Below are positions 6,716 to 52,924 of a DNA stretch of 64,000 nt, one piece after another. The first letter of the stretch is position 1; every line of letters starts with the position of its first letter. The DNA is from an uncultured Eubacteriales bacterium (lineage in GTDB: Bacteria > Bacillota > Clostridia > Oscillospirales > Acutalibacteraceae). Below the pieces are notes generated by a model that was not told the origin of the DNA, did not search any database, and was given only the letters and a program-made list of their open reading frames with translations. The DNA lies in NCBI GenBank assembly GCA_964516565.1, contig CAZEXA010000002.1, positions 1,556 to 65,555 on the forward strand, read 5' to 3'. The position numbers and the translations under genes are program-made.

Positions 6716-6731
6716 TTTTAATTCCTTCTGA

Positions 6732-6772: not shown

Positions 6773-6775
6773 AGG

Positions 6776-25777: not shown

Positions 25778-25851
25778 AGATAGCGTTCTCCTTAAATGGT
25801 AAATTGGTAATCAGTATATACCATCCCCTTATGCTTGTAAAGAATATAATT

Positions 25852-28738: not shown

Positions 28739-28741
28739 CAT

Positions 28742-30904: not shown

Positions 30905-30949
30905 GCCTTAAGCGCGGTTCTTGAAGAGTGACAATCCGGATAATAAAAC

Positions 30950-30972
30950 ACGGGAGGGTTTTACCCTCCCGT
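30950..30972. terminator. Stem-loop between the convergent ABC and hydrogenase operons
   Basis: ACGGGAGGG-tttta-CCCTCCCGT forms a 9-bp GC-rich stem. T-rich sequence follows on the minus strand (TGTTTTATTAT), while the tail on the + strand is weaker. Confidence 0.6.
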
Positions 30973-30978
30973 AATTGA

Positions 30979-31449
30979 TTATTTAGTGGTTTTGAACAGC
31001 CGGTATAAGTTTTCCACGGCGGCGGCGACCGCCGCACAGACCGGTTCGCCGAATGCCGTGCTCTGCGGTTGAATTCCGATACAGACAACCTCACAGCCGA
31101 TTTCGGCCTTCAGGTACGAAAGCATCAACGACAGCGGGAGCATATGCGTGGAAAAGGAGATCCCGGCAATGTCATCGGTATCAATGATGCGTATGTCCCC
31201 CGGAGCCAGCCCCATTTCGGCGGCGTCCGCGATAAACAGCGTGTCCGGAGAGAACGCCTTGATGACCCCTGTGAAGTTTTCGGGAGCTGTCGACCCGGCG
31301 GTGACGAGCATTCCGTCCGGAGCGCTTTTTTTAAGCTTTTCCGCCAAAATCATCCCGGCGGCATCGTCGGCCTTTAAGACCGAGCCGACGCCGAGAACGG
31401 CAGGATGCTTACTGACGGCAAGTTTATTTCGCAGGACGTCCTCGATCAT
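30979..31449 (-). CDS. hycI: Hydrogenase maturation endopeptidase, HycI-type
   Basis: 156 aa. Motif VLGVGSVLKADDAAGMILAEKL. It is the last gene of the hydrogenase operon and its start forms an ATGA overlap. Confidence 0.8.
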   Translation of the reverse strand: MIEDVLRNKLAVSKHPAVLGVGSVLKADDAAGMILAEKLKKSAPDGMLVTAGSTAPENFTGVIKAFSPDTLFIADAAEMGLAPGDIRIIDTDDIAGISFSTHMLPLSLMLSYLKAEIGCEVVCIGIQPQSTAFGEPVCAAVAAAVENLYRLFKTTK

Positions 31450-31817
31450 AATTCAATAGACAGGTCTTTTTTTTCGAGGCTCGCCAAATCAACGCTCGGG
31501 GAGTTGGATAAACAATTTTTCGGGCAGGAATCGACGCACTGGCAACAGAAGATACACAAGCCCACGTCGAGAAACGCCCGCATTTTTTTGTCCTCTTTGG
31601 TACCCTCGTTGACAACCTTGATGGCACCTGTCGGGCAGTCACGCATACACATGGAGCAATTGATGCAATTGGTGCGGTCATAGACGATACGCCCGCGGTA
31701 ATTTTTTTCAACCTGAGGCGCGCCCTTTCCGGCATAGGAAATGGTAGCCGGTTTCTCAAACAGATTTTTGATCGCCTGCAGAGCGATTCTGCCGGGCGTC
31801 GCTTTTTTATTGCTCAT
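31446..31817 (-). CDS. NuoI/HycF-like 2x[4Fe-4S] ferredoxin subunit of the hydrogenase
   Basis: Start trimmed to MSNKKATPG (ATG 31817, ATGA overlap with the upstream stop). Cluster motifs CINCSMCMRDCP and CIFCCQCVDSCP. Confidence 0.8.
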   Translation of the reverse strand: MSNKKATPGRIALQAIKNLFEKPATISYAGKGAPQVEKNYRGRIVYDRTNCINCSMCMRDCPTGAIKVVNEGTKEDKKMRAFLDVGLCIFCCQCVDSCPKNCLSNSPSVDLASLEKKDLSIEL

Positions 31818-32764
31818 AGCACACCTCGAATCAGCAAATTGACAATAACCTGCGCCAGCGCGACAGGAGCTAAGTACTTCCAGCAAAAGCTGATGACGTT
31901 GTTGATACGCAGACGCGCCATGGAAACACGCAAGAGCGTCAATAGAAACAGCGTCAGCAGCGTTTTTACAAAATACAACAGGATATCTATCCATAGGATG
32001 CCCGTCAGAAACGGCAGGAATATGGCAGCAAAAAGTGAAATGACGAAGACCAGTTCACAGTCCTGCATCATGCGAATCAGTGCGAGCAGCCGCCCGCCGT
32101 ATTCGACGAGCGCGCCGGAAACGACCTCGGTTTCAGCCTCCGGCGAATCAAACGGCGCGCGCTCGAGCTTGCACTGAAACGAGATGAGCGCAACAATCGC
32201 CGCCGGGATATTGATCAGCGCGTAGAGCGGATGCGCCGCGTAATACGCGGTGATTCCCGAGAGCGACCACGTGTCGGAAAGAAGCGCCGGAGCGAGCAAC
32301 GAAACGAAAAGAGGCACCTCATAGGCGAAGAGCTGCGTCAGAATACGGGTTGCCCCGATGGTGGCGTAAGCGTCGCGCGAGTACCAGCCGGCAAGAAACA
32401 GCGCGAGCGGCGGGATGGTCAGAAAATAGAGGATGATAATCAGGTCGCCCTCAAACGAAAATGACGCCTGCGCCGAAAACAGCGGAACGTATACAAACCC
32501 GGCCGCCACCGCTGCTAAGGCGACAAGCGGCATCATGGCGAACATACGGGGATTGGCGTCCTTGGGAATCAGGGCACTCTTGCCGACAAGCTTTAAAAAG
32601 TCGGCAAGCGGTTGATACCACGGGGGACCCACGCGGCTCTGCATACGCGCGTACATCTTGCGGTCGAGAAACTCGAGGGCGAAGCTGTAGAGCGACAGAA
32701 ATAAAAAGCCGGGAAAAACAAACGTTTTTAAGAGCATTTCCAAAATTCTCATAGTAACCCTCAA
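31814..32764 (-). CDS. NuoH/HycD-like membrane subunit
   Basis: 316 aa, polytopic. It has the MQSRVGPPWYQPLADFLK (NADHdh family) signature. Confidence 0.8.
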   Translation of the reverse strand: MRVTMRILEMLLKTFVFPGFLFLSLYSFALEFLDRKMYARMQSRVGPPWYQPLADFLKLVGKSALIPKDANPRMFAMMPLVALAAVAAGFVYVPLFSAQASFSFEGDLIIILYFLTIPPLALFLAGWYSRDAYATIGATRILTQLFAYEVPLFVSLLAPALLSDTWSLSGITAYYAAHPLYALINIPAAIVALISFQCKLERAPFDSPEAETEVVSGALVEYGGRLLALIRMMQDCELVFVISLFAAIFLPFLTGILWIDILLYFVKTLLTLFLLTLLRVSMARLRINNVISFCWKYLAPVALAQVIVNLLIRGVL

Positions 32765-33963
32765 AATTTCAATGTCGTCAGGTCGGCGCCGCGGCTCTTA
32801 TACCAGTCGATGCCGTACTGTCTGAGAGCCGCCCAGTCGGTGACGCGCGTGTTTTCTTTTGAGAACAGCGTAATGGCGCGGTCGGTACACGAATAACACG
32901 GGTCTATAGCGGCAATCGTAATCGGGACGTCGGCAAGGTAACCGCCCTCAAGCATATGCTTCATACCGTGCCAATTGGCCTCGGTGGGAGCGCGCACGCG
33001 CACTCTCTCCGGAATCTCCGTACCGTTTGAGCGAATGAAGTGGACGTCCTCTCCGCGAGGCGCCTCGACGCGCACGATGACCTCACCGGCCGGGATACGA
33101 CGCGGCATTTTGACAGTCAAGGGAGTGTCGGGTATATTGTCAAGGCAAACCCTGATGGTGTTCAGACTCTCCACCATTTCAAAAATACGGACAGCCGTTC
33201 TGCCGTAGACATCGGCGTTATTATCGGTGACGGCCTTGACTTTTATCTCCTTATACGCACCGTATGGCTCGACCACGCGCACGTCGTTGACGACGCCTGC
33301 CGCTCTGGCAACCGGTCCGACCGCGCCAAAGCTTCTGACTTCCTCGGCGGTAAGCTTGCCGACGCCCTTCAGGCGGGAAATCAGCGTTGACTCGGTCAGG
33401 GCGAGGTCTAAATAGTGCTTGAGCTCCTCTTCAAGCTCAGCGACGGTTTTAAGAATATCCGCCTTGTCGTCGGGGGTAATGTCACGCCGCACGCCGCCGA
33501 GGGTATTGATTCCGTAGTTGACGCGGTTGCCGCCGAGCGTCGCCAGTAAATCAAGCACCTTCTCGCGGTCGCGCCACGCATACATAAACACCGTGTCGAA
33601 ACCGATTTCATGACACGCGATGCCCAGCCACAGAAGATGGCTGTGCAAACGCTCAAGCTCGGCGACGACGACGCGGATATACTCGGCGCGTGCCGGTATA
33701 GAAACACCGGCAAGCTCCTCCACGCCCATACAGAACAGACTGCCGTGTGCGTGTGAGCAGATACCGCAAACGCGTTCGATAATATAAAGCGCCTGTGTAT
33801 AGCTTCTGTTTTCGCAGGTTTTTTCAAGGCCGCGGTGGTTATAGCCGACACCAATGACGGCGTTGATGACCTTTTCGCCCTCAAGCGTGATATCAAAGCT
33901 GCCCGGCTCCTCGAGCGACGGATGCTGCGGACCTATTGGTATGGTTATCCTGTTGTCACTCAT
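32761..33963 (-). CDS. [NiFe] group-4 hydrogenase large subunit (NuoD-like)
   Basis: 400 aa. The N-terminal Ni-binding motif is RVCGICSHAH and the C-terminal motif is DPCYSCTDR. The latter is followed by a 38-aa extension. Confidence 0.9.
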   Translation of the reverse strand: MSDNRITIPIGPQHPSLEEPGSFDITLEGEKVINAVIGVGYNHRGLEKTCENRSYTQALYIIERVCGICSHAHGSLFCMGVEELAGVSIPARAEYIRVVVAELERLHSHLLWLGIACHEIGFDTVFMYAWRDREKVLDLLATLGGNRVNYGINTLGGVRRDITPDDKADILKTVAELEEELKHYLDLALTESTLISRLKGVGKLTAEEVRSFGAVGPVARAAGVVNDVRVVEPYGAYKEIKVKAVTDNNADVYGRTAVRIFEMVESLNTIRVCLDNIPDTPLTVKMPRRIPAGEVIVRVEAPRGEDVHFIRSNGTEIPERVRVRAPTEANWHGMKHMLEGGYLADVPITIAAIDPCYSCTDRAITLFSKENTRVTDWAALRQYGIDWYKSRGADLTTLKF

Positions 33964-34468
33964 TTTGTTCCGCCTCCTCGCTTACGGGCTTATCATACGT
34001 CAGCGTATTCTTGTTGAACAGCGCCGGATTCCAGTCCTTGCGTAGCGGAAAGTTCCCGTCCGGCCAACCGTCGGGCAGCGGATAGCGCGGACCCTCCGGC
34101 ATATCCGAAAGCTCGATGCCGAACAGATCAATGAGCTCACGCTCATGCAGGACGATGGAAGGATACAACGCGGCGATGCTTTTTGCCTGGGGTTTATCAC
34201 GCGGTACACTCTCGCGTAAAGAGAGCAGATTGCTGTCCTCGTCAGCAAAAATATATAACAGACCGAAGGTGTCGCCGTCGTCGGTACCGACGACATGACT
34301 GGCGCGGGTATAGCCCAGTTCGCTGTTTACAAAGGGGATGACCTTCTCAAACTCTTCTCTCGTAAGAGACGCGCTGACGATGCGTTTCTCTTTGGGACTT
34401 GTCAGTTTTTCGGCTAAAAACGGATATTTCTTTTCCAGCCGTTTAATGACGTCTTCCTCACGACTCAT
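33956..34468 (-). CDS. NuoC-like (30 kDa) hydrogenase subunit
   Basis: Start trimmed to MSREEDVIKRLEK (ATG 34468) with SD AAGGAGG 8 nt upstream. It is 170 aa and includes LHERELIDLFGI. Confidence 0.75.
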   Translation of the reverse strand: MSREEDVIKRLEKKYPFLAEKLTSPKEKRIVSASLTREEFEKVIPFVNSELGYTRASHVVGTDDGDTFGLLYIFADEDSNLLSLRESVPRDKPQAKSIAALYPSIVLHERELIDLFGIELSDMPEGPRYPLPDGWPDGNFPLRKDWNPALFNKNTLTYDKPVSEEAEQNE

Positions 34469-34943
34469 CGCTCCCGCCTCCTTTGTCATTCTTTTTACTC
34501 TTGTCTTCCTCAAGACTCGAAAGCAGTTTGTCAACCGCGTTGAGGATGGTTTCGGGACGCACCGCGCAGCCCGGTACATAGACATCTACGGGAATGACGG
34601 TGTCGATGCCTCCGGTCACACAGTAGCAATCCTTAAAGATGCCGCCTGTACACGCGCAAGTGCCTACGGCGATGACAAATTTCGGGTCTGACATCTGCTG
34701 ATAAATCTGAATAAGGCGCTCACGCGTCTGGAGCGTCACGGCACCCGTACAGACGAGGACGTCGGCATGACGCGGACTGCCCTGCTTGAGAATCCCGACG
34801 CGCTCAAGGTCGTACCGCGGGGTCAACGCGTCGATAACCTCAATGTCGCAGCCGTTGCAGGCTCCGGCGTTGAAATGGATGACCCACGGGGACTTTAAAG
34901 TCCCCTTAAGAATCGCTTTTTTTACAGCTCCCACTAAAATCAC
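34458..34943 (-). CDS. [NiFe] hydrogenase small subunit (NuoB-like)
   Basis: 161 aa. Cluster ligands are CNGCDIE, GTCACTGG and PGCAVRPE, giving a hydrogenase-type CxxC rather than the complex I CC. Confidence 0.85.
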   Translation of the reverse strand: MILVGAVKKAILKGTLKSPWVIHFNAGACNGCDIEVIDALTPRYDLERVGILKQGSPRHADVLVCTGAVTLQTRERLIQIYQQMSDPKFVIAVGTCACTGGIFKDCYCVTGGIDTVIPVDVYVPGCAVRPETILNAVDKLLSSLEEDKSKKNDKGGGSDES

Positions 34944-35260
34944 CTCTTGAGCGCGATCAGAATCGCGAGTATTCCGGAAACGACGTAAATGGCCGGCATT
35001 ACTTGAATATTTTTCGGAGACGTCGCCACGACCAATATCAGAATATGAATGACCGAAAAGATAAACGCAAACGAAAAATACTGACTGTAATCGGGGTTGA
35101 CGTAGTTTTCAACGCTGCGCTGACCGCAGGCGTAGGATTCAAGGGTATGTTCGCCGGCATGTCCTTTTGCACCGAGCTTTTCTAGGGTTTTGGAGAATAA
35201 GATCAGCGAGAAAAGCATCAAACCGAAAAGAATGGGCGGAGAATACAGTACACTATCCAT
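34940..35260 (-). CDS. Small membrane subunit, NuoA/ND3-like
   Basis: 106 aa. A first TM helix is followed by a loop carrying ESYACGQ (compare the YECG of NuoA) and then two more hydrophobic helices (YFSFAFIFSVIHILILVVA). Confidence 0.5.
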   Translation of the reverse strand: MDSVLYSPPILFGLMLFSLILFSKTLEKLGAKGHAGEHTLESYACGQRSVENYVNPDYSQYFSFAFIFSVIHILILVVATSPKNIQVMPAIYVVSGILAILIALKR

Positions 35261-35264
35261 ATCG

Positions 35265-35579
35265 TTATCCTTTCAGCTGGGTCAGGTTGCGGATGTCCAT
35301 ATTCCCGTATTTTTTATACAGCCCGACCGTCACTCCCGCGAAGATGACCGCCGCGACGACCTCAATAACGATGACCGTCACCACATACGCCTGCGCCAGC
35401 CCTAGGTGGCCGTTCATATAACCGGCGAGGATGATGAACATCGTGGCGGCCTTGATGGCGATCTCGATGCCGATGATAATTTTCAGCAGATGGTAGGTGC
35501 GAATCATACACCAACAACCCGCGGCTATCATCAGCACGCCCACAAAAAGCATAACCGTTTCCATATTAAAAAATTCCAT
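35265..35579 (-). CDS. NuoK/ND4L- (MnhC-) like membrane subunit
   Basis: 104 aa with three TM helices. GIEIAIKAA and VIVIEVV supply the two conserved membrane glutamates. Confidence 0.7.
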   Translation of the reverse strand: MEFFNMETVMLFVGVLMIAAGCWCMIRTYHLLKIIIGIEIAIKAATMFIILAGYMNGHLGLAQAYVVTVIVIEVVAAVIFAGVTVGLYKKYGNMDIRNLTQLKG

Positions 35580-35591
35580 ATGCTTTCCTCC

Positions 35592-36107
35592 TTACCCCTG
35601 ATGATGACTGTCAATCGGCTTTGTCTCCTCGTCCCGAAAGAGGACGAAGATAGAGATGCCGCCGATGAGAATGGTGATGACCTGTCCGAAAATATCGGCT
35701 TGCCTTGTATTCCAAAAGATTTCACGGAAGTCCTCGGCGACTTTAACGGCCTCGCTTTTAATGGTAAAGTCGTTGACCAGCGCCAGCACGACAAGACCCA
35801 GCCCCAGAACAATCAACGCCAGAGGCAGCAGCCGCATCCGCTTGTGATCATCATACATCTTATGAACCTCATTGCGCTTCATGTTCGACAGGCTGATGGC
35901 GCTGATGAAGATGATGGTGACGAGTCCCGAGCAGGCAGACACCTCAATGACCGCCGCCCAAACTGCCCCCAGCGCGTACATGATTACCCCGAGCACGGCG
36001 CTGGCAAACGCCAGCCAAATGGCAGACCTGAGCAGGCTGCGCGACATGACCGCCGCCACGCAGGACGCCATTAAAAACGCCAGACTGATATACACTATGA
36101 TTTCCAT
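35592..36107 (-). CDS. NuoJ/ND6- (MnhB/MbhD-) like membrane subunit
   Basis: 171 aa. By eye, MEIIVYISLAFLMAS...LRSAIWLAF...LGAVWAAVIEV parallels E. coli NuoJ MEFAFYICGL...VHALLYLII...LGAYFAGALEI. Confidence 0.5.
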   Translation of the reverse strand: MEIIVYISLAFLMASCVAAVMSRSLLRSAIWLAFASAVLGVIMYALGAVWAAVIEVSACSGLVTIIFISAISLSNMKRNEVHKMYDDHKRMRLLPLALIVLGLGLVVLALVNDFTIKSEAVKVAEDFREIFWNTRQADIFGQVITILIGGISIFVLFRDEETKPIDSHHQG

Positions 36108-36128
36108 ACGCTCACCTCATTACTCACT

Positions 36129-37592
36129 TTACAGATAACCCTTGTGCTGAAGGTACACAAGCGCGAGCGGGAAAAGTATCCCGGCGGCGCTCGTGACAAT
36201 CGTTAAAAGAACCTCCACGGTGCAGACGCTGCCCTTGATTTCCTTAACGGTCTGTAACCCTTCTGGCGTCTTTCCGAAAAAGACCTTCTTCTGAAGCCTC
36301 AACAGATACGCCCCCGTAAAAATGCTCGCGCACAGGGCGCAGCCCGCCAAAACGGGATACCCCGCAAGCCAGAGCGCCAAAATAATCATCAGCTTGCTCC
36401 AAAAGCCGATAAACGGCGGGATACCGGCTGTCGATAAGAAGGCGATGATTGAGGAAAACGCGGTGACCGGCATCCGGCTCTGTAGCCCTCCGAGCTCGTC
36501 GATTTGAAGCGTACCGGTCTGCTCGTGGACGGCGGCGGCGTTCGTAAACAGCGTCGATTTGAAAACGGCGTGGCTGAACACATGGACGACTGCACCGATA
36601 AGCCCGAGCGTCGTACCCGTAGAGAGTCCGAGCAGGATATAGCCCATCTGGCTGACGCTCGAATAGGCGACGATTCTTTTAAAATGGTCCTGCCGAAGAG
36701 CGAGCAGCGCCCCGACGACAATCGAGAGCAGTCCGATGACCATCAGCGAAACCTGTACGACCAAGGCATTGGGAAACAGCCGTGTCAAGACAACCAGTCC
36801 GTAAATACCCGCAGTCTTGATGACAATTCCGGACAGCAGCACCGAGATGGCCGTATCGGCGCTCTGGTGGGCGTCGGGCAGCCAGCTGTGAAACGGCACA
36901 ACACCGGCTTTGACGGAGAATCCGGCAATCATCAGCACCAGCGCCGCGTAGACCATTATCTTCTGCGGGTCAACCGCCCCTTTAAGCAGGGCACCGCCGA
37001 TCTGGTCATAGGAAAGACTGCCGGTCTTAAAAAATATGAAAGCAAGACCCGTCAAAATAAACACGGTAGCCAGCTCCGAAATAATCAAATATTTGATAGA
37101 GCCTTCGAGCGCCTTACGGGAACGGAACATCGCAATCATGACAAAACTTGAAATGCCGATGACGTCAAGAAAGACATACAGCGAAAACAAATCCTTGACG
37201 AGCACCATACCGTTCATGCCGATGATTAAGGTCATCAGCAGATTGACGTAGGTGCTTTTTTTCATATCAATCGTTTTCTTGGCAATCATAACCGACACAA
37301 ATGAAACCATGCCGATACAGAACAGGAACAAAAGCGAAACCGGCGTCAGGCGGAACAGTGCTTTCCCGGTGCTCCCCAGCGTGAGAAACAGACTAAAATC
37401 GTAACGGGTTATGTTTTGTGCGTCGAAAACAAAGAACGCGAGAACCGCCGCCAGCATCTGCAAAACGGCCACTACGCCGCTGAGCAGCCAAAAATACCGC
37501 TCCATTAGCTTTTTGGGGAAGATATTATTGACAAACAGGGCGGCAAAGGGCACGAGAACGAAAATCCCGGAGCAAAAATCTAAATAGTTCAT
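36129..37592 (-). CDS. Antiporter-like subunit (NuoM/N / MrpD / HyfD family)
   Basis: 487 aa, ~14 TM helices. Proton_antipo_M core motif FHSWLPDAHQSADTAISVLLSGIVIKTAGIYG. Confidence 0.8.
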   Translation of the reverse strand: MNYLDFCSGIFVLVPFAALFVNNIFPKKLMERYFWLLSGVVAVLQMLAAVLAFFVFDAQNITRYDFSLFLTLGSTGKALFRLTPVSLLFLFCIGMVSFVSVMIAKKTIDMKKSTYVNLLMTLIIGMNGMVLVKDLFSLYVFLDVIGISSFVMIAMFRSRKALEGSIKYLIISELATVFILTGLAFIFFKTGSLSYDQIGGALLKGAVDPQKIMVYAALVLMIAGFSVKAGVVPFHSWLPDAHQSADTAISVLLSGIVIKTAGIYGLVVLTRLFPNALVVQVSLMVIGLLSIVVGALLALRQDHFKRIVAYSSVSQMGYILLGLSTGTTLGLIGAVVHVFSHAVFKSTLFTNAAAVHEQTGTLQIDELGGLQSRMPVTAFSSIIAFLSTAGIPPFIGFWSKLMIILALWLAGYPVLAGCALCASIFTGAYLLRLQKKVFFGKTPEGLQTVKEIKGSVCTVEVLLTIVTSAAGILFPLALVYLQHKGYL

Positions 37593-37615
37593 ATCGTTAC
37601 CTCAAATCAGCATTC

Positions 37616-39490
37616 TTACATCTTGGCAAGGACGATTAAAAAGACCGCGAAGATCAGCGCCACACCTCCGACCACCAGCCAAAGATACCTTGACAAGCGG
37701 CCGTTGTCAAAGCGGTGCAGCACCGTCCCGACGCCGCCGACGGCTCCGGGTATTGCGATGTCATAGACCCACGACACCCCGTGCTCCAGTGCGGTACAGC
37801 CCTTAGAAAAGATGTCGGTGATATTCAGAAGCCAGTTATAGGGGTCAAGAAGCCCCTTCTTTGCGGTGCTCATGAGCTGTTTTAGTCCGGGCAGCCCCGT
37901 GATGTGATCAACCGCGCAAAGTGCGCTGCCGGATTTCTTATAACCGAACGCATGGTCGGCGTAGGCGGCAAGCAGAACGACAACCGAAATGATGACGAGC
38001 ATTGCCGATTTCGGAAGTCCTGAAAAGGACTCGCTCACGCCGAGCGCCGGTCCGACCATTTTATCAAGCGGTAAAAAGTTCCCCAGTCCAAAGAGTACAC
38101 AGACGACAGCAAAAACGCCGGCGGGTGCGAGCAACCCCATTTTTTCACGCTCGGAGAGTTTTTCGCCCTGCGGCTCTCTATGCTCGCCGTAAAACAGTGA
38201 GCGTCCCGTTCTGAAAAACGACAGCGCCGTCAAAAACGAGCCGAGCGCCGCGATAACATAAAATACCGGTGCGCTTTCAAGAGCGGCATCAAAAATCAGC
38301 TCCTTGGAGAAAAAGCCGTTCAAGCCGGGAAAACCAATGTAGGACAGTGCGAAAATGAGGAAACAAAGAGCCGCGCCGGGCATCGTCTTTTTTAATCCCG
38401 AAAGTTTCCTGAGATCGGTTGTGCCTGTCTGTTTTTCAATGGAACCGGTCACCATAAACAACCCCGTCTTATAGGTAACATGGTTCATCATATGGAACAC
38501 AGCGCCCACAAGCCCGACGGTCAACCCCGTGCCGACGCCAAGCACCATATAACCGAGTTGGCTGATGGTGTGATAGACAAGGATGCGTTTCATATCCGTC
38601 TGGACGAGCGCCATCATGGCCCCGACGAGAATGGTCAGCGCCCCGAGCGACATCAGCGCGATACTCATTGCGCTCCCCGGCTCGAGACGGTAAATTTCAA
38701 ATACGGCGCGCGCGGCTAAAAACATACCGATAATTTTTTCAAAGGCACTCGGAAAAGCAACCATAAATACAGTCGGCGCGTCGTCAGCAGCATTCGGGAG
38801 CCAGCTGTGAAACGGCAGGACGCCGCTCTTGCCGAACGCGCCGAGGATCAACAGAATAAAGCCCGCAGCACCGATTCCCGTAATTGACTGTGTGCTCATC
38901 TCGCTGACGTTAAACGTCCCCGCCTGATGACCTGTGACAATGATGCCGAGCATAAGCAGCAAATCAGCAATACCGGACACCGTCAAGGCTTTGATTGCCG
39001 TCTTTGGTTTATTGGTATGCCCAATCAGCAGAATGCCCAGCAGGGTACAAAGCAACCCCTCCCAGAAAAAGAGCATAAAGCCGAGGTTGTCCGAGAGCAG
39101 CGCGCCGTTGAGCAGCCCGACGCTGATGAATAAATACAACAGATACAGCCCGCCGTACGACGCTTTTTTGAGCCAGACGAGGGTATAGATGACGATAAGC
39201 ACCGTCACGCACGCAGCGAACAGGACAAAAAACGAGGAATAGTCACTGACGTTAAACGAAAGCGAAAAGCCCGCCGGCGCAAAGGGCAGCTTAACATAAA
39301 ACTCCGCGTGGGTAAAAAGACCCCCGGCAAACAGCAGATTGAGCACCGCATACAGAAGCGCGATGACCGCACACACAGTCCTGTTTTTTCTTTCAAGCCA
39401 GAGTAAGCCGCCTATGAATACGGGCAACACGACCATACAGGTCAGCAGGTTCGCGCCGCCGCTGAGAAAATTACCGAAACCGTTAAGCAT
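37616..39490 (-). CDS. Antiporter-like subunit, NuoL/MrpA-like, with a C-terminal lateral-helix-like segment and terminal TM anchor
   Basis: 624 aa. The core motif is FHSWLPNAADDAPT. The C-terminus has a ~90-aa largely amphipathic stretch followed by a final TM helix (YLWLVVGGVALIFAVFLIVLA). Confidence 0.7.
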   Translation of the reverse strand: MLNGFGNFLSGGANLLTCMVVLPVFIGGLLWLERKNRTVCAVIALLYAVLNLLFAGGLFTHAEFYVKLPFAPAGFSLSFNVSDYSSFFVLFAACVTVLIVIYTLVWLKKASYGGLYLLYLFISVGLLNGALLSDNLGFMLFFWEGLLCTLLGILLIGHTNKPKTAIKALTVSGIADLLLMLGIIVTGHQAGTFNVSEMSTQSITGIGAAGFILLILGAFGKSGVLPFHSWLPNAADDAPTVFMVAFPSAFEKIIGMFLAARAVFEIYRLEPGSAMSIALMSLGALTILVGAMMALVQTDMKRILVYHTISQLGYMVLGVGTGLTVGLVGAVFHMMNHVTYKTGLFMVTGSIEKQTGTTDLRKLSGLKKTMPGAALCFLIFALSYIGFPGLNGFFSKELIFDAALESAPVFYVIAALGSFLTALSFFRTGRSLFYGEHREPQGEKLSEREKMGLLAPAGVFAVVCVLFGLGNFLPLDKMVGPALGVSESFSGLPKSAMLVIISVVVLLAAYADHAFGYKKSGSALCAVDHITGLPGLKQLMSTAKKGLLDPYNWLLNITDIFSKGCTALEHGVSWVYDIAIPGAVGGVGTVLHRFDNGRLSRYLWLVVGGVALIFAVFLIVLAKM

Positions 39491-39496
39491 ATTTCC

Positions 39497-40909
39497 TCAA
39501 CCTCCTATCATCGACGCGAGCTGCGACGGAATAAAACTTAAAAAGCCGAACAGTAAAGAGGCGACTCCGAGAATGACGACTGAGGCGACCATGATTTTTG
39601 TGCCCTCCCTGTGACCGTGTGCGGCGGCTTCGCCCTGCTCCCCGAGGAAAATTTTTACAAAGAGCCGCGTCAGATACAAAAGCGTCATAACGGCACTGAG
39701 GATAAACGCGGCGGCAATCCAGATGTTTCCCGCCTCGACAATGCCCTCAATGACCAGGAATTTTGTAAAGAATCCGAAGAACGGCGGAATCCCCATGATT
39801 GAGAGGGCACAGAGAATAAACGCAACGGCGGTAAGCGGCATAGTCTTTATCAGCCCGCCCATCTTGGATAAATCCTTGGTGTGCAAAGCGTGCTCGACGA
39901 TACCGGCACATAAAAACAGTCCGCCTTTGGCGAGGCTGTGCGCTAAAATATACATCATCCCGCCGACGACGCCGATTTTGGCCCCGCACGACAAACCGAG
40001 CAGGATAAAAGCGAGCTGGCTGATGGTCGAATAAGCGAGCACGCGCTTCATATCGTTCTGGCGCAGCGCGACTCCCGCAGTGAAAAGCGCGCTGACGGCC
40101 GCTATGAGAGGCACAACGGTTTTGAACATGTCGGGGACGCTGAAAGTCAGCACGAACAGACGGGCGTAGGCGTAGACGCCGATCTTGACAAGCACGGCGG
40201 CGTGAAGCAGCGACGTGACAGGCGACGGCGCGATGCCCGCGTCGGGCAGCCAGCTGTGGAGCGGGAATGTCGCCGACTTCGAAAGGATGCCGCACAGAAT
40301 ACAGACAACACTCCATGACGGAACCGTGACACCCTTCATGGCGGACAGCTCAAACGTGCCGGTCTGCCCGTAAATGCCGATAAATCCTATCAGCATAAAG
40401 AGCGCGCCGAGGACGGTCACGATAAAGGTCTTGTTTGCCTTTGTGATTGTAATCTCCACACGGTAAAAGCCGATCAGCCGCCAGCAGCAGAGCGTTGACA
40501 GCTCCCAGAAAGTGTATATGGCGATGAGGTTCGTTGAATAGACAATACCCATCATTGCCCCGATAAACAGGCATACCATCATATAATACTCGTTCTGATT
40601 CGGATAATCCTTAATATATCCATAGGAGTACAGAACGATAACCATGCTGACAAGCGTCGCCGTCATCGCCATAAAAACCGCGAGCGGATCTCCGAGCACA
40701 CCGAAACTTAAGCCCAGAGGCAGCGCAAAGCGTGCCGTAACCGGATTGCCGCTCAAGGCGCCCGGCAGCGCCGCCGCCGCGCAGACAAACGCCGCCGCGA
40801 CGAGTACAAACGCCGTTCTGTCGCGCAGCTTGGCGCTCACCTTCCCGAGAAAGGGAAGCAGCAGCGACCCGACGAGCGGAATCAATATTCCCGCAATTAA
40901 CACATTCAT
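39497..40909 (-). CDS. Antiporter-like subunit (NuoN/M / MrpD family)
   Basis: 470 aa. Motifs LHSWLPDAGIAPSPVTSLLHAAVLVKIGVYA and AYSTISQLAFILLG. Confidence 0.8.
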   Translation of the reverse strand: MNVLIAGILIPLVGSLLLPFLGKVSAKLRDRTAFVLVAAAFVCAAAALPGALSGNPVTARFALPLGLSFGVLGDPLAVFMAMTATLVSMVIVLYSYGYIKDYPNQNEYYMMVCLFIGAMMGIVYSTNLIAIYTFWELSTLCCWRLIGFYRVEITITKANKTFIVTVLGALFMLIGFIGIYGQTGTFELSAMKGVTVPSWSVVCILCGILSKSATFPLHSWLPDAGIAPSPVTSLLHAAVLVKIGVYAYARLFVLTFSVPDMFKTVVPLIAAVSALFTAGVALRQNDMKRVLAYSTISQLAFILLGLSCGAKIGVVGGMMYILAHSLAKGGLFLCAGIVEHALHTKDLSKMGGLIKTMPLTAVAFILCALSIMGIPPFFGFFTKFLVIEGIVEAGNIWIAAAFILSAVMTLLYLTRLFVKIFLGEQGEAAAHGHREGTKIMVASVVILGVASLLFGFLSFIPSQLASMIGG

Positions 40910-40949: not shown

Positions 40950-41954
40950 TCAGCAGATTCTCGGCAACAGTTCGCCGCGCGGCATGTTGATCGCCCTGAG
41001 CGAACCGACCTCCGTCTCCTCGAGGACGGCTCCCCGCCCCTGTCTGACCTCTCCGGCAATAACAGCGTTTTTACCCTGAGGCGTATCATGCAGCCGTGAC
41101 AGCACCCTATCGGCGCAGCCGGACGGCACACAAAACACAATCACGCCCTCGTTGGCAATATACAGCGGGTCAAGACCGAGAAGCGCACAGGCGGCCGACA
41201 CATCCTTGCGCACAGGCACCGCCCCGTTGTACAAAACGATATCGCATCCGTGAACCATCCACTCACACAACACCGCCGCCAGTCCGCCGCGCGTCGGGTC
41301 GCGCATGGCGTGAACCGTACATTCCGTATCCGCCAAAACGTTCTGCACCATTCCGGCAAGCGGCATGGCGTCGCTTTCAATCGGCGGAGAGAAGCCGAGG
41401 CGGTTTCTCTCATTCATGATTGCCATGCCGTGCGAAGCAATACAACCGCTGACGATGATTTTGTCGCCTGCCGCTATCCTCTGTGACGGTATTTCCCAAT
41501 CAGGAGGAAACACGCCGACGCCGGCGGTGTTGACGGTTATCCCATCAGGCAGTCCCCGATTTTCGATGACCTTGGTGTCGCCCGTGACGATGCGCACCCC
41601 GGCGCTTTCTGCCGTATGCGCCATTGACTCGGCTATCCTGTGCAGCGTGCTAACCGAAAAACCCGCCTCAATGACCATTCCGACCGACAAATACCGCGGC
41701 GACGCGCCGCTGACGGCAAGATCATTGACCGTTCCGCTGACCGCTAAAGAACCGATATCCCCGCCGGGGAAAAACAGCGGTCTGACAACAAAGCTGTCTG
41801 TCGTCATCGCGATTTTTTCCGCCCCGGGCAGGATGGCGGCATCGCCAAGCGGGTCTATATATTCATTTTTAAACGCGGGCAGAAACACCTCGGCGACAAG
41901 CTCCCGATACTTTTCCCCGCCGGCTCCGTGAGCCAAAGAAATTACATCGTCCAT
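40950..41954 (-). CDS. hypE: Hydrogenase maturation protein HypE
   Basis: 334 aa. It has an AIR-synthase-like fold signature, an N-terminal LAHGAGG and the C-terminal PRIC motif. Confidence 0.9.
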   Translation of the reverse strand: MDDVISLAHGAGGEKYRELVAEVFLPAFKNEYIDPLGDAAILPGAEKIAMTTDSFVVRPLFFPGGDIGSLAVSGTVNDLAVSGASPRYLSVGMVIEAGFSVSTLHRIAESMAHTAESAGVRIVTGDTKVIENRGLPDGITVNTAGVGVFPPDWEIPSQRIAAGDKIIVSGCIASHGMAIMNERNRLGFSPPIESDAMPLAGMVQNVLADTECTVHAMRDPTRGGLAAVLCEWMVHGCDIVLYNGAVPVRKDVSAACALLGLDPLYIANEGVIVFCVPSGCADRVLSRLHDTPQGKNAVIAGEVRQGRGAVLEETEVGSLRAINMPRGELLPRIC

Positions 41955-43018
41955 AAACGCTCTCCATATTGGTAGGCGGCAAAGCAGCTGCCTTCGGAGG
42001 ACACCATGCAGGGTCCCGCGGGACTATCCGGCGTACAGGTCTTTTTGAACCGCCGGCACTGTTCGGGTGATGCCTCACCCCTTAAAATTGCCGCACACAG
42101 GCAGCCTTCCGGCTCGACCTCTTCCGTTTTGGGTACGTAAAACCGCTTCATTGCGTCAAAATCCTCATACCGCCGGGCGATGCTCAGTCCGCTTCCCATG
42201 ATTTCCCCGAGCCCTCGCCACAAAGCCGTATCCGGCTCAAAAACGCAGTTCATCAGTTCCTGCGCATACCGATTCCCCAGCTCGGTCACCGCACGGGGAT
42301 ACATGTTAACGCACGCGATTTCGCCGCTTTTGACCATTCCGACGAGCTTTGCCGTCGCGCCGAGGATGTCAAGCGTAGTAAATCCCGCGACAGCCGCCGG
42401 TAAGGCAAGTTCCTCCGCGACAAACCGGAACGCCTTTGCGCCGGTAATCGCGGCGACATGACCCGGACACAACAGCGCGTGGATGCGGGTCTGCCCCTTC
42501 AGAAGTGTACGGAGCGCCTCGGGCATGGTCTTGTGGGCGCACAGCACGCTCAGATTCCTGACGCCTTGCCGCTCTGCCGCTTCAATGAGCGCGGCGGTGT
42601 GCGGCGCGGTCGTTTCAAAACCGATTCCGAACCAGACGACTTGCCTGTCCGGGTTTTCGAGGGCTATCGTGAGCGCATCCATCGGCGAAACGAGCACGCG
42701 GATATCCCGTCCCCGCTCAAGAAGCGTGCTGAGGCTGGTTTTTTTGCAGGGTACGCGCAGCATATCGCCGAAGCTTGTGAAAATAACGCCGTCCCGGTCG
42801 GCAATCGACAGCGCGGCCTTGATTGTCGAAGCGGGTGTCACGCAGACCGGACAGCCCGGCCCGGAAACAAGCCGGATATTCTCAGGCAGCGCCGCGGGAA
42901 TGCCGAAACGCCGGATATGGTTCGTATGCGTACCGCATACCTCCATAATACGGATGGTGCCGAGCGGCGCGGCGAGTTCCCGTATACCCTTAAGAATAGA
43001 TTGCGTATCGGTGTTCAT
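41942..43018 (-). CDS. hypD: Hydrogenase maturation protein HypD
   Basis: 358 aa. Motifs include MEVCGTHT, GPGCPVCV and FETTAP. Confidence 0.9.
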   Translation of the reverse strand: MNTDTQSILKGIRELAAPLGTIRIMEVCGTHTNHIRRFGIPAALPENIRLVSGPGCPVCVTPASTIKAALSIADRDGVIFTSFGDMLRVPCKKTSLSTLLERGRDIRVLVSPMDALTIALENPDRQVVWFGIGFETTAPHTAALIEAAERQGVRNLSVLCAHKTMPEALRTLLKGQTRIHALLCPGHVAAITGAKAFRFVAEELALPAAVAGFTTLDILGATAKLVGMVKSGEIACVNMYPRAVTELGNRYAQELMNCVFEPDTALWRGLGEIMGSGLSIARRYEDFDAMKRFYVPKTEEVEPEGCLCAAILRGEASPEQCRRFKKTCTPDSPAGPCMVSSEGSCFAAYQYGERLWTM

Positions 43019-43239
43019 ACAGCCGTTTCCCGCAAGGTTTCCTCAATAAGCTTTTGGAGCTCCGCCCCGTCGTCATCACTGAGCTTTTGGATGATAAAGC
43101 CCGCGTGAACAAGCACCGTGTCGCCGACTCCGGCTTCGGGAAACAGACGAAGACCGGCGCTTCTCAAAACGCCGCCGTAATCGACGAGCGCTTGATCGCC
43201 CTGAATCTCTTTAATCACGCCCGGAATAGCCAAACACAT
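43015..43239 (-). CDS. hypC: Hydrogenase assembly chaperone HypC/HupF family
   Basis: Start trimmed to MCLAIPGVIKEI (ATG 43239, SD GAGGTG). It is 74 aa with the invariant N-terminal Cys2. The track ORF's 47-codon extension overlaps hypF. Confidence 0.85.
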   Translation of the reverse strand: MCLAIPGVIKEIQGDQALVDYGGVLRSAGLRLFPEAGVGDTVLVHAGFIIQKLSDDDGAELQKLIEETLRETAV

Positions 43240-43243
43240 ACTG

Positions 43244-45508
43244 TCACCTCGTTCTGTATGACGCCGCGGCGGCCTGACCGAAGGAAATACCGCCGTCGTT
43301 GCAGGGGACTTTCTCATTTGTATATACGGTAAACCCGTGACCCGAGAGGCTTTTAAAAGCCTCGCCGAGAAGGATTTCATTTTGAAAGACGCCGCCGGAT
43401 AGGGTGACCGTTTTACAGCCGGTACTATTTTCGAAACGAAGCGCCGCCTCGGTTATCAAAGAAACAACCGCGCTGTGAAATCGACGGGAGATAACACCCG
43501 CGCCGATACCCGCTTGTCTGTCCATAAACGCCTCGGCGATAACCGGCCGCCAGTCGAACAGCGTCTGCCCGTCCTGCTCCGAAATTCCGAAATGGTAGGA
43601 ACCTTTCTCCGCAAAATCAAGCTGCCGCATAAGCTCGACAGCCGCCTGACCCTCGTAGCGCGCTTTCGTGCAAACCCCGGCAATTGCCGACACCGCGTCA
43701 AACAGCCGTCCCATTGAGGAGGTCATCGGGGCGTTCAGCCCCGTTTCCCCCGCCTTGAGCAGAATCGGTGCCCAGTCGCCCTCAAACAGCGACAGCGCGG
43801 CGTCTTTTCCCAGCGCGGCGTTAACCGTCGCCAGAGCACAGCGTTTCGGTTCTCTGACGGCTCCGTCGCCGCCTAAGAGCGGGAAATACAGGTTGTGCCC
43901 AAGCCTTTGGCTTTTCTCTACGCCGCCGAACAGCGCTTCGCCGCCCCAGATACAAGTATCTTCACCATAACCCGCACCGTCAAACGAAAACCCGATAGCC
44001 TGAGCTTTAAGCCTATGCTCGGCAAGCACAGAGGCAAAGTGCGCGTGGTGGTGCTGAATTCTTTGCAACGGCCGCCCCTCGCTCATACGCTCCATGATTC
44101 CCGCGGAAACGTAATCGGGGTGCAAATCGCAGACGAAAGTGTCGGGAACCGCGTCAAACAAACCCAGAAACGCCTTGAGCTCGCTCTCGTAACTTTGTAC
44201 CGTGTCCTCGTCGTCAAGGTCGCCGATATGACCGCTTAAAAAAGCGTTCTCACCCTTTGTCAGACAAAACGTGTTTTTCTGCTGTGCGCCGCCTGCTAAA
44301 ATCACTTGGCGGCAGCCCGAAAGGAACAGCGGTTCGGGGGCGTACCCGCGCGCGCGGCGAAGCAGCCGCATTCTACCTTGAGAGACAATCCCCACGCTGT
44401 CATCGACACGCCGTACAATGCGCCTGTCATGCGTCAGCATAGCATCGGCAACACGGGAAAGCTTTTTTATAGCCTCCTCGTCTTTATAGACCATCGGATT
44501 GTCAGACAGATTGCCGCTCGTCATCACAAGACTGACTGAGTCTTTTGCCCCGCGCCCGTCAAATGCGCTGAGCAGTAAAGCGTGCAGCGGCGTGTACGGA
44601 AGCATAACGCCGAGCCGGGAATCCCCTGCCGTTACCGAATAGGCAATGCCGCTGTCCTCTCTTTTTTTCAAAAGAATAATCGGCTTCTGAGGCGACAGAA
44701 GCGCTTCCTCCTCGTCCGAATTGACCATGCAATGCCGTTTCACTTCGTTAAGATTACGCATCATAACCGCCAGCGGCTTTTCGTAACGCAGCTTTTTTTC
44801 GCGCAGTCTCTGTACAGCCGCTTCATTTTCGGCGTCGCAAGCCAAATGATAGCCTCCGAGCCCCTTGACCGCCACAATCCGCCCTTTGAGGATTTCCTCC
44901 GTAAACAGCTGCAGCGGATCGCCGGGGACTGATTGCCCGTCCCGGATAAAGGAGAGCCTCGGTCCGCAAGCAGGACAGGCATCCGGTTGGGCGTGAAAAC
45001 GCCGGTTCTTGGGATCGCCGTATTCTTCGCGGCAGTCCGCACACATGGCGAACGCGTTCATCGAGGTATTGGCTCGGTCATACGGTACCGACTCGATGAT
45101 AGAAAAACGCGGACCGCAGTTGGTACAGTTGGTAAACGCGTATCCGAAACGGCGGTCTGCTTTATCGGCGATTTCCGAAAGGCAGTCATCGCAGATGCCG
45201 ATGTCCGGAGAAATAAAGGTTTCGCAGAAGCCCTCTCCGCTCGGCAAAATCAAAAAGCCGCCGAACCCGGTCGGGGCTAAGTCCGAACAGCTAATATCCG
45301 TGATTCGCGCCATCGGCGGCGCCTCTGCTTTCAGCCTGTCGCAAAAGAGAGCGCAGCGCTCGGCGCTGCCCTCAATTTCAATCCATACGCCCTCGGGCGT
45401 ATTTCTGACAAATCCGCTGAGCGACAGAGAATCCGCCAGCCGATAAACAAACGGCCTGAAACCGACGCCCTGCACCGTTCCTCTGACCTTTATCCGCCAT
45501 CTGCGCAT
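43244..45508 (-). CDS. hypF: Carbamoyltransferase HypF
   Basis: 754 aa. It has an acylphosphatase-like N-terminus (VRGTVQGVGFRPFVYRLA), zinc fingers (CDDCLSE...CTNCGPRFSII; CADC...CPACGP), and YrdC-like and Kae1-like domains. Confidence 0.92.
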   Translation of the reverse strand: MRRWRIKVRGTVQGVGFRPFVYRLADSLSLSGFVRNTPEGVWIEIEGSAERCALFCDRLKAEAPPMARITDISCSDLAPTGFGGFLILPSGEGFCETFISPDIGICDDCLSEIADKADRRFGYAFTNCTNCGPRFSIIESVPYDRANTSMNAFAMCADCREEYGDPKNRRFHAQPDACPACGPRLSFIRDGQSVPGDPLQLFTEEILKGRIVAVKGLGGYHLACDAENEAAVQRLREKKLRYEKPLAVMMRNLNEVKRHCMVNSDEEEALLSPQKPIILLKKREDSGIAYSVTAGDSRLGVMLPYTPLHALLLSAFDGRGAKDSVSLVMTSGNLSDNPMVYKDEEAIKKLSRVADAMLTHDRRIVRRVDDSVGIVSQGRMRLLRRARGYAPEPLFLSGCRQVILAGGAQQKNTFCLTKGENAFLSGHIGDLDDEDTVQSYESELKAFLGLFDAVPDTFVCDLHPDYVSAGIMERMSEGRPLQRIQHHHAHFASVLAEHRLKAQAIGFSFDGAGYGEDTCIWGGEALFGGVEKSQRLGHNLYFPLLGGDGAVREPKRCALATVNAALGKDAALSLFEGDWAPILLKAGETGLNAPMTSSMGRLFDAVSAIAGVCTKARYEGQAAVELMRQLDFAEKGSYHFGISEQDGQTLFDWRPVIAEAFMDRQAGIGAGVISRRFHSAVVSLITEAALRFENSTGCKTVTLSGGVFQNEILLGEAFKSLSGHGFTVYTNEKVPCNDGGISFGQAAAASYRTR

Positions 45509-45633: not shown

Positions 45634-45671
45634 GTCAAAAATAACCGTATCCTTTGACGGAGAGTGAGACC

Positions 45672-48590: not shown

Positions 48591-48619
48591 TTGACTTGTC
48601 CGCTTGTTTATGATAAAGT
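48591..48619 (+). promoter_or_regulatory. Candidate sigma-A promoter for the pyr operon
   Basis: TTGACT (48591-48596), a 17-nt spacer ending in TGa, then TAAAGT (48614-48619). The track ORF's TTG start is this -35 box. Confidence 0.5.
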
Positions 48620-48647
48620 ACCCCTTAAGGGTAAGGGGGTTGTCGGA

Positions 48648-49928: not shown

Positions 49929-49932
49929 AACG

Positions 49933-52269: not shown

Positions 52270-52284
52270 GAGGAAAGAGAAAAA

Positions 52285-52923: not shown

Positions 52924-52924
52924 A

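Follow-up and report, generated by a model that had tools for sequence, protein, structure and literature searches.

An uncultured Eubacteriales bacterium encodes a probable ferredoxin-dependent [NiFe] hydrogenase that copies the 11-subunit core of complex I

Organization of the locus

We analysed a stretch of 64,000 nucleotides (nt) from the genome of an uncultured Eubacteriales bacterium (assembly GCA_964516565.1, contig CAZEXA010000002.1; hereafter, the window), the minus strand of which carries an operon for a group-4 [NiFe] hydrogenase whose structural subunits belong to the same eleven protein families as the core of respiratory complex I. An original prediction, made from the DNA letters alone, had proposed 12 co-directional, abutting or overlapping genes at positions 30979–40909, and all 12 open reading frames (ORFs) were recovered there, with gaps of 0–23 nt that leave no space for extra genes (Table 1). 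The operon is, however, larger than originally described: hypF, hypC, hypD, and hypE occupy positions 40950–45508, directly upstream and on the same strand, and all four score above the curated cutoffs of the corresponding NCBIfam/TIGR profiles. Given the promoter-like sites at 45611–45530, upstream of hypF, and the terminator-like hairpin downstream of hycI, transcription likely spans positions 45508–30949, so that hypFCDE, the 11 structural genes, and hycI likely constitute a single 16-gene unit.

The structural genes, named here after their complex I (Nuo) counterparts, with the antiporter-like (ant) ones designated by length in amino acids (aa), are arranged in the order ant470-ant624-ant487-J-K-A-B-C-D-H-I. 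Only the A-B-C-D-H-I block, which had been correctly recognized as following the nuo order, and the J-K pair match the fpo/nuo arrangement.

Table 1. Features of the predicted hydrogenase transcription unit, in the direction of transcription (TM, transmembrane segment)
Feature	Position	Strand	Supporting match or remark
hypF, carbamoyltransferase for the CN ligands of the NiFe site, first gene of the unit	43244..45508	-	TIGR00143, 755 bits (cutoff 466)
hypC, chaperone	43015..43239	-	TIGR00074, 58.9 bits (cutoff 48)
hypD	41942..43018	-	TIGR00075, 400.8 bits
hypE	40950..41954	-	TIGR02124, 403 bits; 40 nt upstream of the first structural gene
Antiporter-like subunit, 470 aa, 14-TM core only	39497..40909	-	Proton_antipo_M, 1.8e-70; Proton_antipo_N
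NuoL-type antiporter-like subunit, 624 aa, predicted TM15, lateral helix, and TM16	37616..39490	-	NuoL model NF005141
NuoM/N-type antiporter-like subunit, 487 aa	36129..37592	-	Proton_antipo_M, 7e-67
NuoJ/ND6-like subunit, 171 aa, 5 TM	35592..36107	-	Oxidored_q3, 30.4 bits
NuoK/ND4L-like subunit, 104 aa	35265..35579	-	Oxidored_q2, 54.8 bits
NuoA/ND3-like subunit, 106 aa: TM1, YACGQ loop, TM2, TM3	34940..35260	-	Oxidored_q4, 17.6 bits, sub-threshold
Hydrogenase small subunit (NuoB-like), 161 aa	34458..34943	-	Oxidored_q6, 2e-31
NuoC-like subunit, ~170 aa	33956..34468	-	Complex1_30kDa, 1.3e-18; start codon uncertain (34468 or 34489)
[NiFe] hydrogenase large subunit (NuoD-like), 400 aa	32761..33963	-	L1 and L2 motifs
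NuoH/ND1-like membrane anchor, 316 aa	31814..32764	-	NADHdh, 6.7e-69
NuoI-like 2x[4Fe-4S] subunit, 123 aa	31446..31817	-	Fer4 family matches; TIGR01971 (NuoI), 78 bits
HycI-type maturation endopeptidase, 156 aa	30979..31449	-	TIGR00142, 129.8 bits (equivalog cutoff 119.1)
Intrinsic terminator-like hairpin	30949..30973	-	11-bp stem with 7 GC pairs, then TTTTATTATC; 6 nt past the hycI stop codon

The catalytic module is that of a group-4 [NiFe] hydrogenase

The large subunit contains both nickel-binding motifs, L1 (RVCGICSHAH) and L2 (DPCYSCTDR), not only in the window but in all 18 family loci examined, and the four cysteine ligands of the NiFe site are kept across the family. The L2 motif is followed by a C-terminal extension of 38 aa, which aligns with the extension of Escherichia coli HycE that is cleaved off by HycI. 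In a sequence search against the PDB, the best match to the large subunit was MbhL (310 bits), followed by HycE (301 bits, with the alignment reaching into the extension) and Nqo4 (206 bits); NuoD chains of complex I scored ~200 bits. The protein is 38% identical to both HycE and HyfG and 29% identical to NuoCD, and its scores against the NCBIfam NuoD profiles all fall under the curated cutoffs.

The other catalytic components tell the same story. The cysteine pattern of the small subunit reads CNGC...GTCACTGG...PGC, with the CNGC motif (C29 and C32) present in 18/18 sequences, and the protein is 44% identical to HycG compared to 34% for NuoB. The HycI-type protease is 42% identical to its E. 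coli namesake. Two CxxCxxCxxxCP motifs are apparent in the translation of the NuoI-like subunit, which is presumed to be the entry point for ferredoxin electrons. The homologues of NuoB, C, D, H, and I are all solid profile matches, and the combination used to define group 4, that is, a NuoH-like anchor, a NuoI-like subunit, and at least 1 antiporter-like subunit in one operon, is present in full. Because of the NiFe motifs, the CxxC-type small subunit, the co-operonic hyp genes, and HycI, the sequence identifies the enzyme as a genuine group-4 [NiFe] hydrogenase rather than complex I. The same identification had been made in the original prediction from the two Ni-binding motifs and the CNGC pattern, each of which held up, and the C-terminal extension now adds to it.

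Three antiporter-like subunits, one of the NuoL type

The 470-, 624-, and 487-aa proteins, which had been taken for antiporter-like subunits, all match Proton_antipo_M (E-values of 1e-53 to 1e-70) and score about equally on the MrpA/MrpD and the NuoL/M/N models. The 470- and 487-aa subunits each consist of a 14-TM core in which a Glu(Asp)/Lys/Lys/Lys set is invariant, namely E136, K211, K242, and K383 in the former (invariant in 15/15 sequences) and D/E143, K228, K259, and K400 in the latter. The 470-aa subunit is closest to HyfD (33% identity) and to the N-terminal part of NuoL (32%); the 487-aa subunit matches the NDH_I_M model at 251 bits and NDH_I_N at 230 bits.

The 624-aa subunit spans the NuoL model NF005141 from one end to the other (model positions 28–612 of 615). 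It displays the NuoL-specific residues D176 (equivalent to D178 of NuoL), E397 (equivalent to D400), H333, and K341, in addition to the general set E144, K221, and K396; the TM8 lysine is absent. Most of these residues are conserved in the family. An AlphaFold model built from an alignment of 38 homologues (predicted local distance difference test score, pLDDT, of 87.8) comprises TM15 (residues 496–520), helices 534–544 and 550–594, and TM16 (599–623). According to this model, the subunit carries a lateral helix of ~60 residues and TM16, the two features that had been surmised from a long amphipathic stretch and a terminal hydrophobic segment. The best PDB fold matches were NdhF, MrpA, and NuoL, with template modelling scores of 0.72–0.78 over the whole length, and neither HycC nor MbhH was among the top 50. 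Judging from its sequence, the 624-aa subunit is clearly of the NuoL type, and a separate assignment to M and N is not possible for the 470- and 487-aa subunits. The initial inventory of A, B, C, D, H, I, J, K, L, M, and N therefore stands at the level of eleven families but not as a one-to-one assignment of L, M, and N, given that the 470-aa subunit is nearest to HyfD and the 487-aa subunit is of a general M/N type.

Homologues of NuoJ, NuoK, and NuoA

The three small membrane proteins had been assigned to NuoK, NuoJ, and NuoA, and the profile searches place all of them on the ND4L/ND6/ND3 side, with the 171- and 106-aa proteins scoring under the cutoffs of the respective models. The NuoK call is solid: the 104-aa protein reaches 54.8 bits against Oxidored_q2 (curated cutoff of 26.1), and both membrane glutamates of NuoK, E39 and E73, are found in 18/18 sequences. 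The NuoJ call is good. The 171-aa protein scores 30.4 bits against Oxidored_q3, just under the cutoff of 33.2, and this model is matched by 17/17 of its orthologues (best E-value of 5e-10), with 7 matching MbhD more weakly. The profile of the family matches MbsD, MbhD, and E. coli NuoJ over residues 1–109, its invariant E55 aligns with E55 of NuoJ, and hydropathy predicts five TM segments, as in NuoJ.

The NuoA call is the weakest, being sub-threshold but consistent. Whereas the predicted arrangement of TM1, a loop, and YACGQ was borne out, the 106-aa protein scores 17.6 bits against Oxidored_q4 (NuoA/ND3), below the cutoff of 23.3. This model is matched by 31/48 members of the family at E ≤ 0.01, with no competing family coming up. 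Y43, C45, and G46 of the YACGQ loop are invariant in 18/18 sequences. When the family profile was compared to the PDB, it matched only ND3 chains (E-values of 0.08–0.5), besides one unrelated chance match, and the profile alignment places YACG on the FECG loop of ND3. The loop also resembles WVCGY of HycC and WACGY of HyfB, and some of the homologues are named NuoA in IMG. The AlphaFold model of this small membrane protein has a pLDDT of 73 and a predicted template modelling score of 0.42, its best PDB fold matches have an E-value of 2, and hhalign of the family against the single E. coli NuoA sequence yields a probability of 0.5%. None of the 12 operon proteins produced a Pfam or NCBIfam match of the MrpE/F/G, MbhA-C, or MbhF type.

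In two independent alignments, the invariant H72 in TM2 of the 106-aa protein aligns with the conserved aspartate of ND3/NuoA (D79 of E. coli NuoA). By this alignment, a protonatable residue is retained and its chemistry is altered with respect to the ND3 aspartate.

Distribution and gene order

Among the 26 related loci fetched, 16 belong to the same family and span the whole structural block (L003-L012, L014, L015, L024-L026, and L032). The gene order, three antiporter-like genes followed by J, K, A, B, C, D, H, I, and hycI, is identical in all 16, which come from different Bacillota lineages, and the shorter family contigs have the same order over the part covered; the original prediction had raised the question of how far this arrangement extends. 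The hypCDE genes are present in every family locus reaching far enough upstream, with the exception of L009, L010, and L012, which yielded no hyp match. By record title, the hosts are uncultured Eubacteriales, Clostridiales, Peptococcaceae, Oscillospiraceae, and other Bacillota, many of them from anaerobic digesters. Every named family member that we looked up is a metagenome-assembled genome (MAG), and no cultured host was found among them. The large subunit is represented by at least 120 clusters (at 90% identity) that are 67% identical or closer, and a profile of the A subunit finds 2841 clusters. In a library clustered at 50% identity, the family forms one cluster, with the next cluster being only 52% identical.

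NuoC (~170 aa) and NuoD (400 aa) are encoded by separate genes in the window. In L030, L031, and L032 (67–68% identity), the two are fused into a protein of 566–602 aa, with the rest of the cassette unchanged; the fused members are P0110, P0112, P0117, and P0120, of which P0110 and P0120 are encoded by L030-L032.

No genes for formate dehydrogenase (Fdh), carbon monoxide dehydrogenase (CODH), NuoEFG, HycB, or ferredoxin are present in the flanks of the operon in the window, in agreement with the initial reading of the locus. In the related loci, Fdh, HycB, CODH, and NuoEFG are never found beside the cassette, and the flanking genes vary between genomes. Likewise, neither the window nor any of the related loci that we examined yielded the HycB/HyfA polyferredoxin, FdhF, HycH/HyfJ, or FocA.

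Two further groups of loci carry more distant relatives. In Anaerolineae (L016-L021), a related hydrogenase with a large subunit 45–47% identical to that in the window has a different gene order (e.g., L019:2659-12477): a short protein resembling MbhD or the N-terminal part of NuoJ, a 180-aa NuoK-containing protein, three antiporters, an A-like protein of 112 aa, and B-C-D-H-I. The antiporter-like subunits of these loci are ~485–490 aa long and have no NuoL-type tail, the large subunit ends at DLCIACADR, and hycI is absent. A Nanohaloarchaea MAG (L023:5211-10290) encodes a large subunit 37% identical to that in the window, within the order antiporter-H-B-C-D-I, and both NiFe motifs are missing from it; this complex is hydrogenase-related but not a hydrogenase.

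Phylogeny and NiFe-less sister loci

In a neighbour-joining tree of 135 large-subunit sequences, which comprised library representatives together with HycE, HyfG, and NuoCD of E. coli and MbhL of Pyrococcus furiosus, the family is nested among NiFe-containing group-4 clusters, beside neither HycE/HyfG nor MbhL, although the tree is crude and contains few references. The distances are 0.56 to MbhL, 0.60–0.61 to HyfG/HycE, and 0.75 to NuoCD. The tree, too crude to settle the matter, lends no support to the notion that, of all hydrogenases, the family stands closest to complex I.

In the nearest sister clusters (P0391, P0397, and P0418; 44–45% identical), most or all of the NiFe cysteines have been lost. 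The corresponding loci, each a single metagenomic contig, keep the same gene order (L036:3035-12455, L035:433-9777, and L033:102-3919). All eleven structural genes are retained in L036; hyp genes and hycI are absent from it, its large subunit lacks the C-terminal extension, and its A subunit is devoid of the YACGQ loop. The L035 cassette is preceded by a hypE fragment. These loci look like an Ehr-like, "de-hydrogenased" derivative of the complex, and their sequences suggest a transition from a hydrogenase to a non-hydrogenase within this bacterial lineage.

An 11-subunit enzyme carrying a NiFe site on NuoD was postulated by Moparthi and Hagerhall (2011) to be ancestral to both membrane hydrogenases and complex I; they also reported that all extant 11-subunit complexes are without the C-terminal cysteine pair. 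One could combine these threads and view the family and its sisters as a living bacterial representative of that ancestor type, a second independent hydrogenase-to-non-hydrogenase transition, and a complete four-channel pump of the complex I type that would be powered by the small energy difference between ferredoxin and H2, with variable or sub-integer H+/2e- gearing. We regard this combined scenario as improbable.

Comparison with known complexes

The closest published parallel is Hfo, an 11-subunit Fpo/Nuo-like [NiFe] hydrogenase of Bathyarchaeia assigned to HydDB subgroup 4g, with similar clusters in Ca. Methanomethylicus and Pyrodictium delaneyi (Loh et al. 2021, PMC7886697). By its published description, Hfo comprises the same eleven complex I core homologues, with the L1 and L2 NiFe motifs in the D subunit; in both systems, the NuoEFG/FpoF module and the Mrp Na+ module are absent, coupling to ferredoxin is presumed, and the enzyme is biochemically uncharacterised. 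However, Hfo is archaeal and follows the fpo/nuo gene order, whereas in the operon described here the antiporter genes come first, followed by J-K and then A-B-C-D-H-I, and the HycE-like extension, the co-encoded HycI, and hypFCDE set the bacterial operon apart.

The Hyc/Hyf enzymes (group 4a) share with the operon the similarity of the large subunit (38% identity), the DPCYSCTDR cleavage motif, a homologous C-terminal extension, and HycI, and Hyf, too, contains three antiporter-like subunits as well as a NuoK-like domain (HyfE). The original prediction had contrasted the operon with Hyc/Hyf as being without a NuoA-like component; this no longer holds, since HycC ends in a fused ND3-like module that has the same conserved cysteine in its loop (PMC9474812), and an ND3-like loop, W(A/V)CGY compared to YACGQ here, is present in HyfB as well. 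The differences lie elsewhere. FdhF, the HycB/HyfA donor branch, and HycH/HyfJ are absent here, and NuoC and NuoD are separate in the window; the ND3-like module is a free 3-TM protein rather than the C-terminus of HycC/HyfB, accompanied by a separate 5-TM NuoJ-like protein; and the lateral helix of HycC is short, unlike the long one predicted for the 624-aa subunit.

The membrane-bound hydrogenase (MBH) of P. furiosus (group 4d, PDB 6CFW) provides the best sequence match to the large subunit in the PDB and is likewise ferredoxin-dependent without an extra donor module. Homology extends to MbhD, which matches the first three TMs of the 171-aa protein, the D subunits of Mbh and Mbs being homologues of TM1-3 of NuoJ. 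In MBH, the NuoJ equivalent is split between MbhD and MbhE. In the paper on the MBH structure, MbhG is reported to be the counterpart of NuoK and MbhI that of NuoA. On the other hand, the single antiporter-like subunit of MBH has a short lateral helix, as opposed to three such subunits and a ~60-residue lateral helix here, MbhL has no C-terminal extension, and MBH contains a Na+ module, MbhA-C plus MbhF (Loh et al., PMC7886697), whereas the Mrp small subunits are absent from the operon. The original contrast, which named the MrpE/F/G-like subunits of Mbh, was overstated, given the NuoJ-homologous D subunits of Mbh and Mbs.

Ech (group 4e) differs as well, with six subunits and a single antiporter-like one, compared to eleven structural and three antiporter-like subunits here. 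Group 4f, described as a formate-coupled, Ech-type cluster of six genes (ehfA-F), was rejected as an identity for the operon. Complex I in its 11-subunit form shares all eleven families, the A-B-C-D-H-I order, the equivalents of NuoL D178 and D400, the lateral (HL) helix, TM16, the NuoK glutamates, E55 of NuoJ, and the ND3 loop cysteine. It differs in that the D subunit here has a NiFe site instead of a quinone site, the B subunit a CxxC motif, and the A subunit a histidine for the TM2 aspartate, in that hyp and hycI genes are dedicated to the complex here, and in that the large subunit lies far from NuoCD in the tree.

Complex I-like group-4 hydrogenases with a full HL helix were reported from Asgard archaea in 2024 (Valentin-Alvarado, PMC11291895; Appler, bioRxiv 2024.07.04.601786). 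Among bacteria, the Saganbacteria RX6A hydrogenase was described in a supplementary note as nearest to enzymes of Pelobacter propionicus and Clostridia, with homologues of NuoI, NuoC, and NuoH, three membrane subunits homologous to NuoK/NuoL, and three Mrp antiporter subunits (Carnevali 2019, PMC6349859). The Asgard and RX6A complexes resemble the one described here in belonging to group 4, in possessing either a full HL helix or multiple subunits of the NuoL/M/N or Mrp type, and in the absence of an oxidoreductase module; in some Asgard lineages, however, the complexes contain Hdr domains or are co-encoded with Hdr and ATP synthase genes. A paper analysing the present Bacillota family was not found in the open-access literature text. 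Because Hfo, the Asgard complexes, RX6A, and the postulated 11-subunit ancestor have already been described, the operon is a bacterial instance of a recognised but uncharacterised kind: as far as we found, the design has been reported in archaea and no analysis of a bacterial case has appeared. The novelty implied by the original prediction was accordingly overstated, with Hfo (2021) and the Asgard complexes (2024) preceding it.

Proposed mechanism and alternatives

Collectively, the gene content and the conserved residues point to a self-contained, ferredoxin-dependent, ion-translocating group-4 [NiFe] hydrogenase that copies the 11-subunit core of complex I, a reading to which we assign a probability of about 0.68. 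Judging from the genes and motifs, the large subunit would be matured by HypC-F and by HycI cleavage after DPCYSCTDR. Reduced ferredoxin would then deliver electrons to the two [4Fe-4S] clusters of the NuoI-like subunit, and, by way of the single cluster in the NuoB-like subunit, these would reach the NiFe site of the NuoD-like subunit, where protons would be reduced to H2. By homology, the redox step is expected to be relayed through an "E-channel" module formed by the NuoH-, A-, J-, and K-like subunits, whose conserved features include the Cys45 loop and H72 (A subunit), E55 (J subunit), and E39 together with E73 (K subunit). The signal would reach the three antiporter-like subunits, each with a complete Glu/Lys/Lys set, which are presumably clamped together by the lateral helix of the NuoL-type subunit. 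The reaction is probably reversible, with H2 evolution and generation of a proton motive force (pmf) at low H2 partial pressure being the most likely physiological direction. Since the cassette is never found beside Fdh, CODH, or NuoEFG, ferredoxin is the most likely electron donor, by analogy with MBH and Ech, relatives without a donor module for which this donor is established (PMC7886697 among sources).

Several points weigh against this reading. The NuoA assignment is sub-threshold, ferredoxin is deduced as the donor only from the absence of a partner gene, the enzyme family is known from genes and sequence alone, and the structure models cover single subunits. The energetics are also tight. 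By our own estimate from standard potentials, electron transfer from ferredoxin (about -450 to -500 mV) to H+/H2 yields ~20–45 kJ per H2 even at low H2 partial pressure, which is too little for four channels translocating 1 H+ each against a normal pmf. Either the complex is geared lower than complex I, or some of the channels serve another role, or the enzyme is restricted to very low H2 partial pressures, or it works in the opposite direction. Hyf, with its three antiporter-like subunits, poses the same puzzle.

Reverse operation, whereby the same complex would oxidize H2 and use the inflow of ions to reduce ferredoxin, seems unlikely as the physiological direction. Exactly this role was proposed for the 11-subunit Hfo (Loh et al., PMC7886697), it is established for Ech in methanogens, and group-4e enzymes are listed as physiologically reversible in the HydDB table; many hosts of the family come from anaerobic digesters, where acetogens and syntrophs occur, and, as we infer, a high H+/2e- ratio would ease ferredoxin reduction even at a low pmf. 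However, Wood-Ljungdahl pathway genes or those of another ferredoxin-consuming pathway are absent beside the operon in the window, the HycE-like large subunit and HycI-type maturation resemble those of H2-evolving enzymes, and the import of several H+ per H2 would be wasteful.

That the hydrogenase would translocate Na+, or a mixture of H+ and Na+ as in Mbh, rather than protons only, strikes us as rather doubtful. The antiporter-like subunits do score about equally on the Mrp and Nuo models, MrpA is among the top structural matches of the 624-aa model, and Mbh is described as a mixed H+/Na+ enzyme. Yet the MrpE/F/G- and MbhA-C-like subunits, the companions of the Na+ module in Mbh and Mrp, are absent here, and the charged set of the 624-aa subunit is of the NuoL type.

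Less likely still is a Hyf-type formate hydrogenlyase (FHL-2), in which a formate dehydrogenase and a HycB/HyfA-like connector would be encoded elsewhere in the genome. The affinity is visible in the identity of the large subunit to HycE/HyfG and the shared cleaved extension and HycI, in the closeness of the 470-aa subunit to HyfD, in the NuoC-NuoD fusion of some family members, as in HycE/HyfG, and in the three antiporter-like subunits of Hyf. Nevertheless, neither HycB/HyfA, FdhF, HycH/HyfJ, nor FocA turned up in the window or the related loci examined, the crude tree does not put the family beside E. coli HycE/HyfG, and the whole family stands as its own cluster at 50% identity. Finally, an 11-subunit complex I (quinone reductase or Fpo-like enzyme) misread as a hydrogenase is effectively refuted: the NCBIfam NuoD, NuoB, NuoH, and NuoI models are the best named matches and databases often label the homologues as NADH-quinone oxidoreductase subunits, but all four NiFe ligands are conserved across the family, the small subunit has CxxC and not the CC motif of NuoB, hypFCDE and hycI lie in the same operon, the large subunit bears a cleavable extension, and the NuoD scores are all sub-cutoff.

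If the ferredoxin-dependent, ion-translocating hydrogenase is what the operon encodes, common uncultured fermenters or syntrophs of digesters would conserve energy from ferredoxin-driven H2 production with a pump of complex I grade, which bears on the H2 and ATP yields of anaerobic digester communities. A bacterial system with a NiFe site in the place of the quinone site and with a complete NuoH/A/J/K and three-antiporter arm could be used to test how redox chemistry drives distant proton channels and which H+/2e- ratio a small energy span permits. The NiFe-less sister loci would provide a natural comparison of the states before and after the step from which complex I arose. The archaeal Hfo and Asgard complexes already make the conceptual point, and the value of the family lies in a new, abundant bacterial lineage rather than in a new principle.

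Genomic surroundings of the operon

Upstream of the hydrogenase unit and divergent from hypF, three plus-strand genes (45654–48551) encode proteins with 2-hydroxyacyl-CoA dehydratase-like (DUF2229/HGD-D) and BcrAD/BadFG activase domains. Activases of the BcrAD/BadFG type use reduced ferredoxin or flavodoxin; this neighbourhood is not common to the relatives of the operon. They are followed by a housekeeping pyrimidine cluster on the plus strand (48591–53839), comprising dihydroorotase, PyrK-like and PyrD proteins of dihydroorotate dehydrogenase B, orotidine monophosphate decarboxylase, and a phosphoribosyltransferase. Immediately downstream of the unit, on the plus strand (25804–30904), two ATP-binding cassette (ABC) transporter-like proteins of 812 and 720 aa flank a 178-aa ORF; as read from their translations, both have Walker A-type ATP-binding motifs and extra cysteine-rich N-terminal regions. 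Farther away, at positions 2001–8000 and chiefly at 4001–6000, the G+C content dips to 0.33, compared to ~0.53 elsewhere. This stretch, which may represent horizontally acquired DNA, covers minus-strand ORFs at 2987–6715, including one for a 650-aa protein with a weak DUF1430 match.

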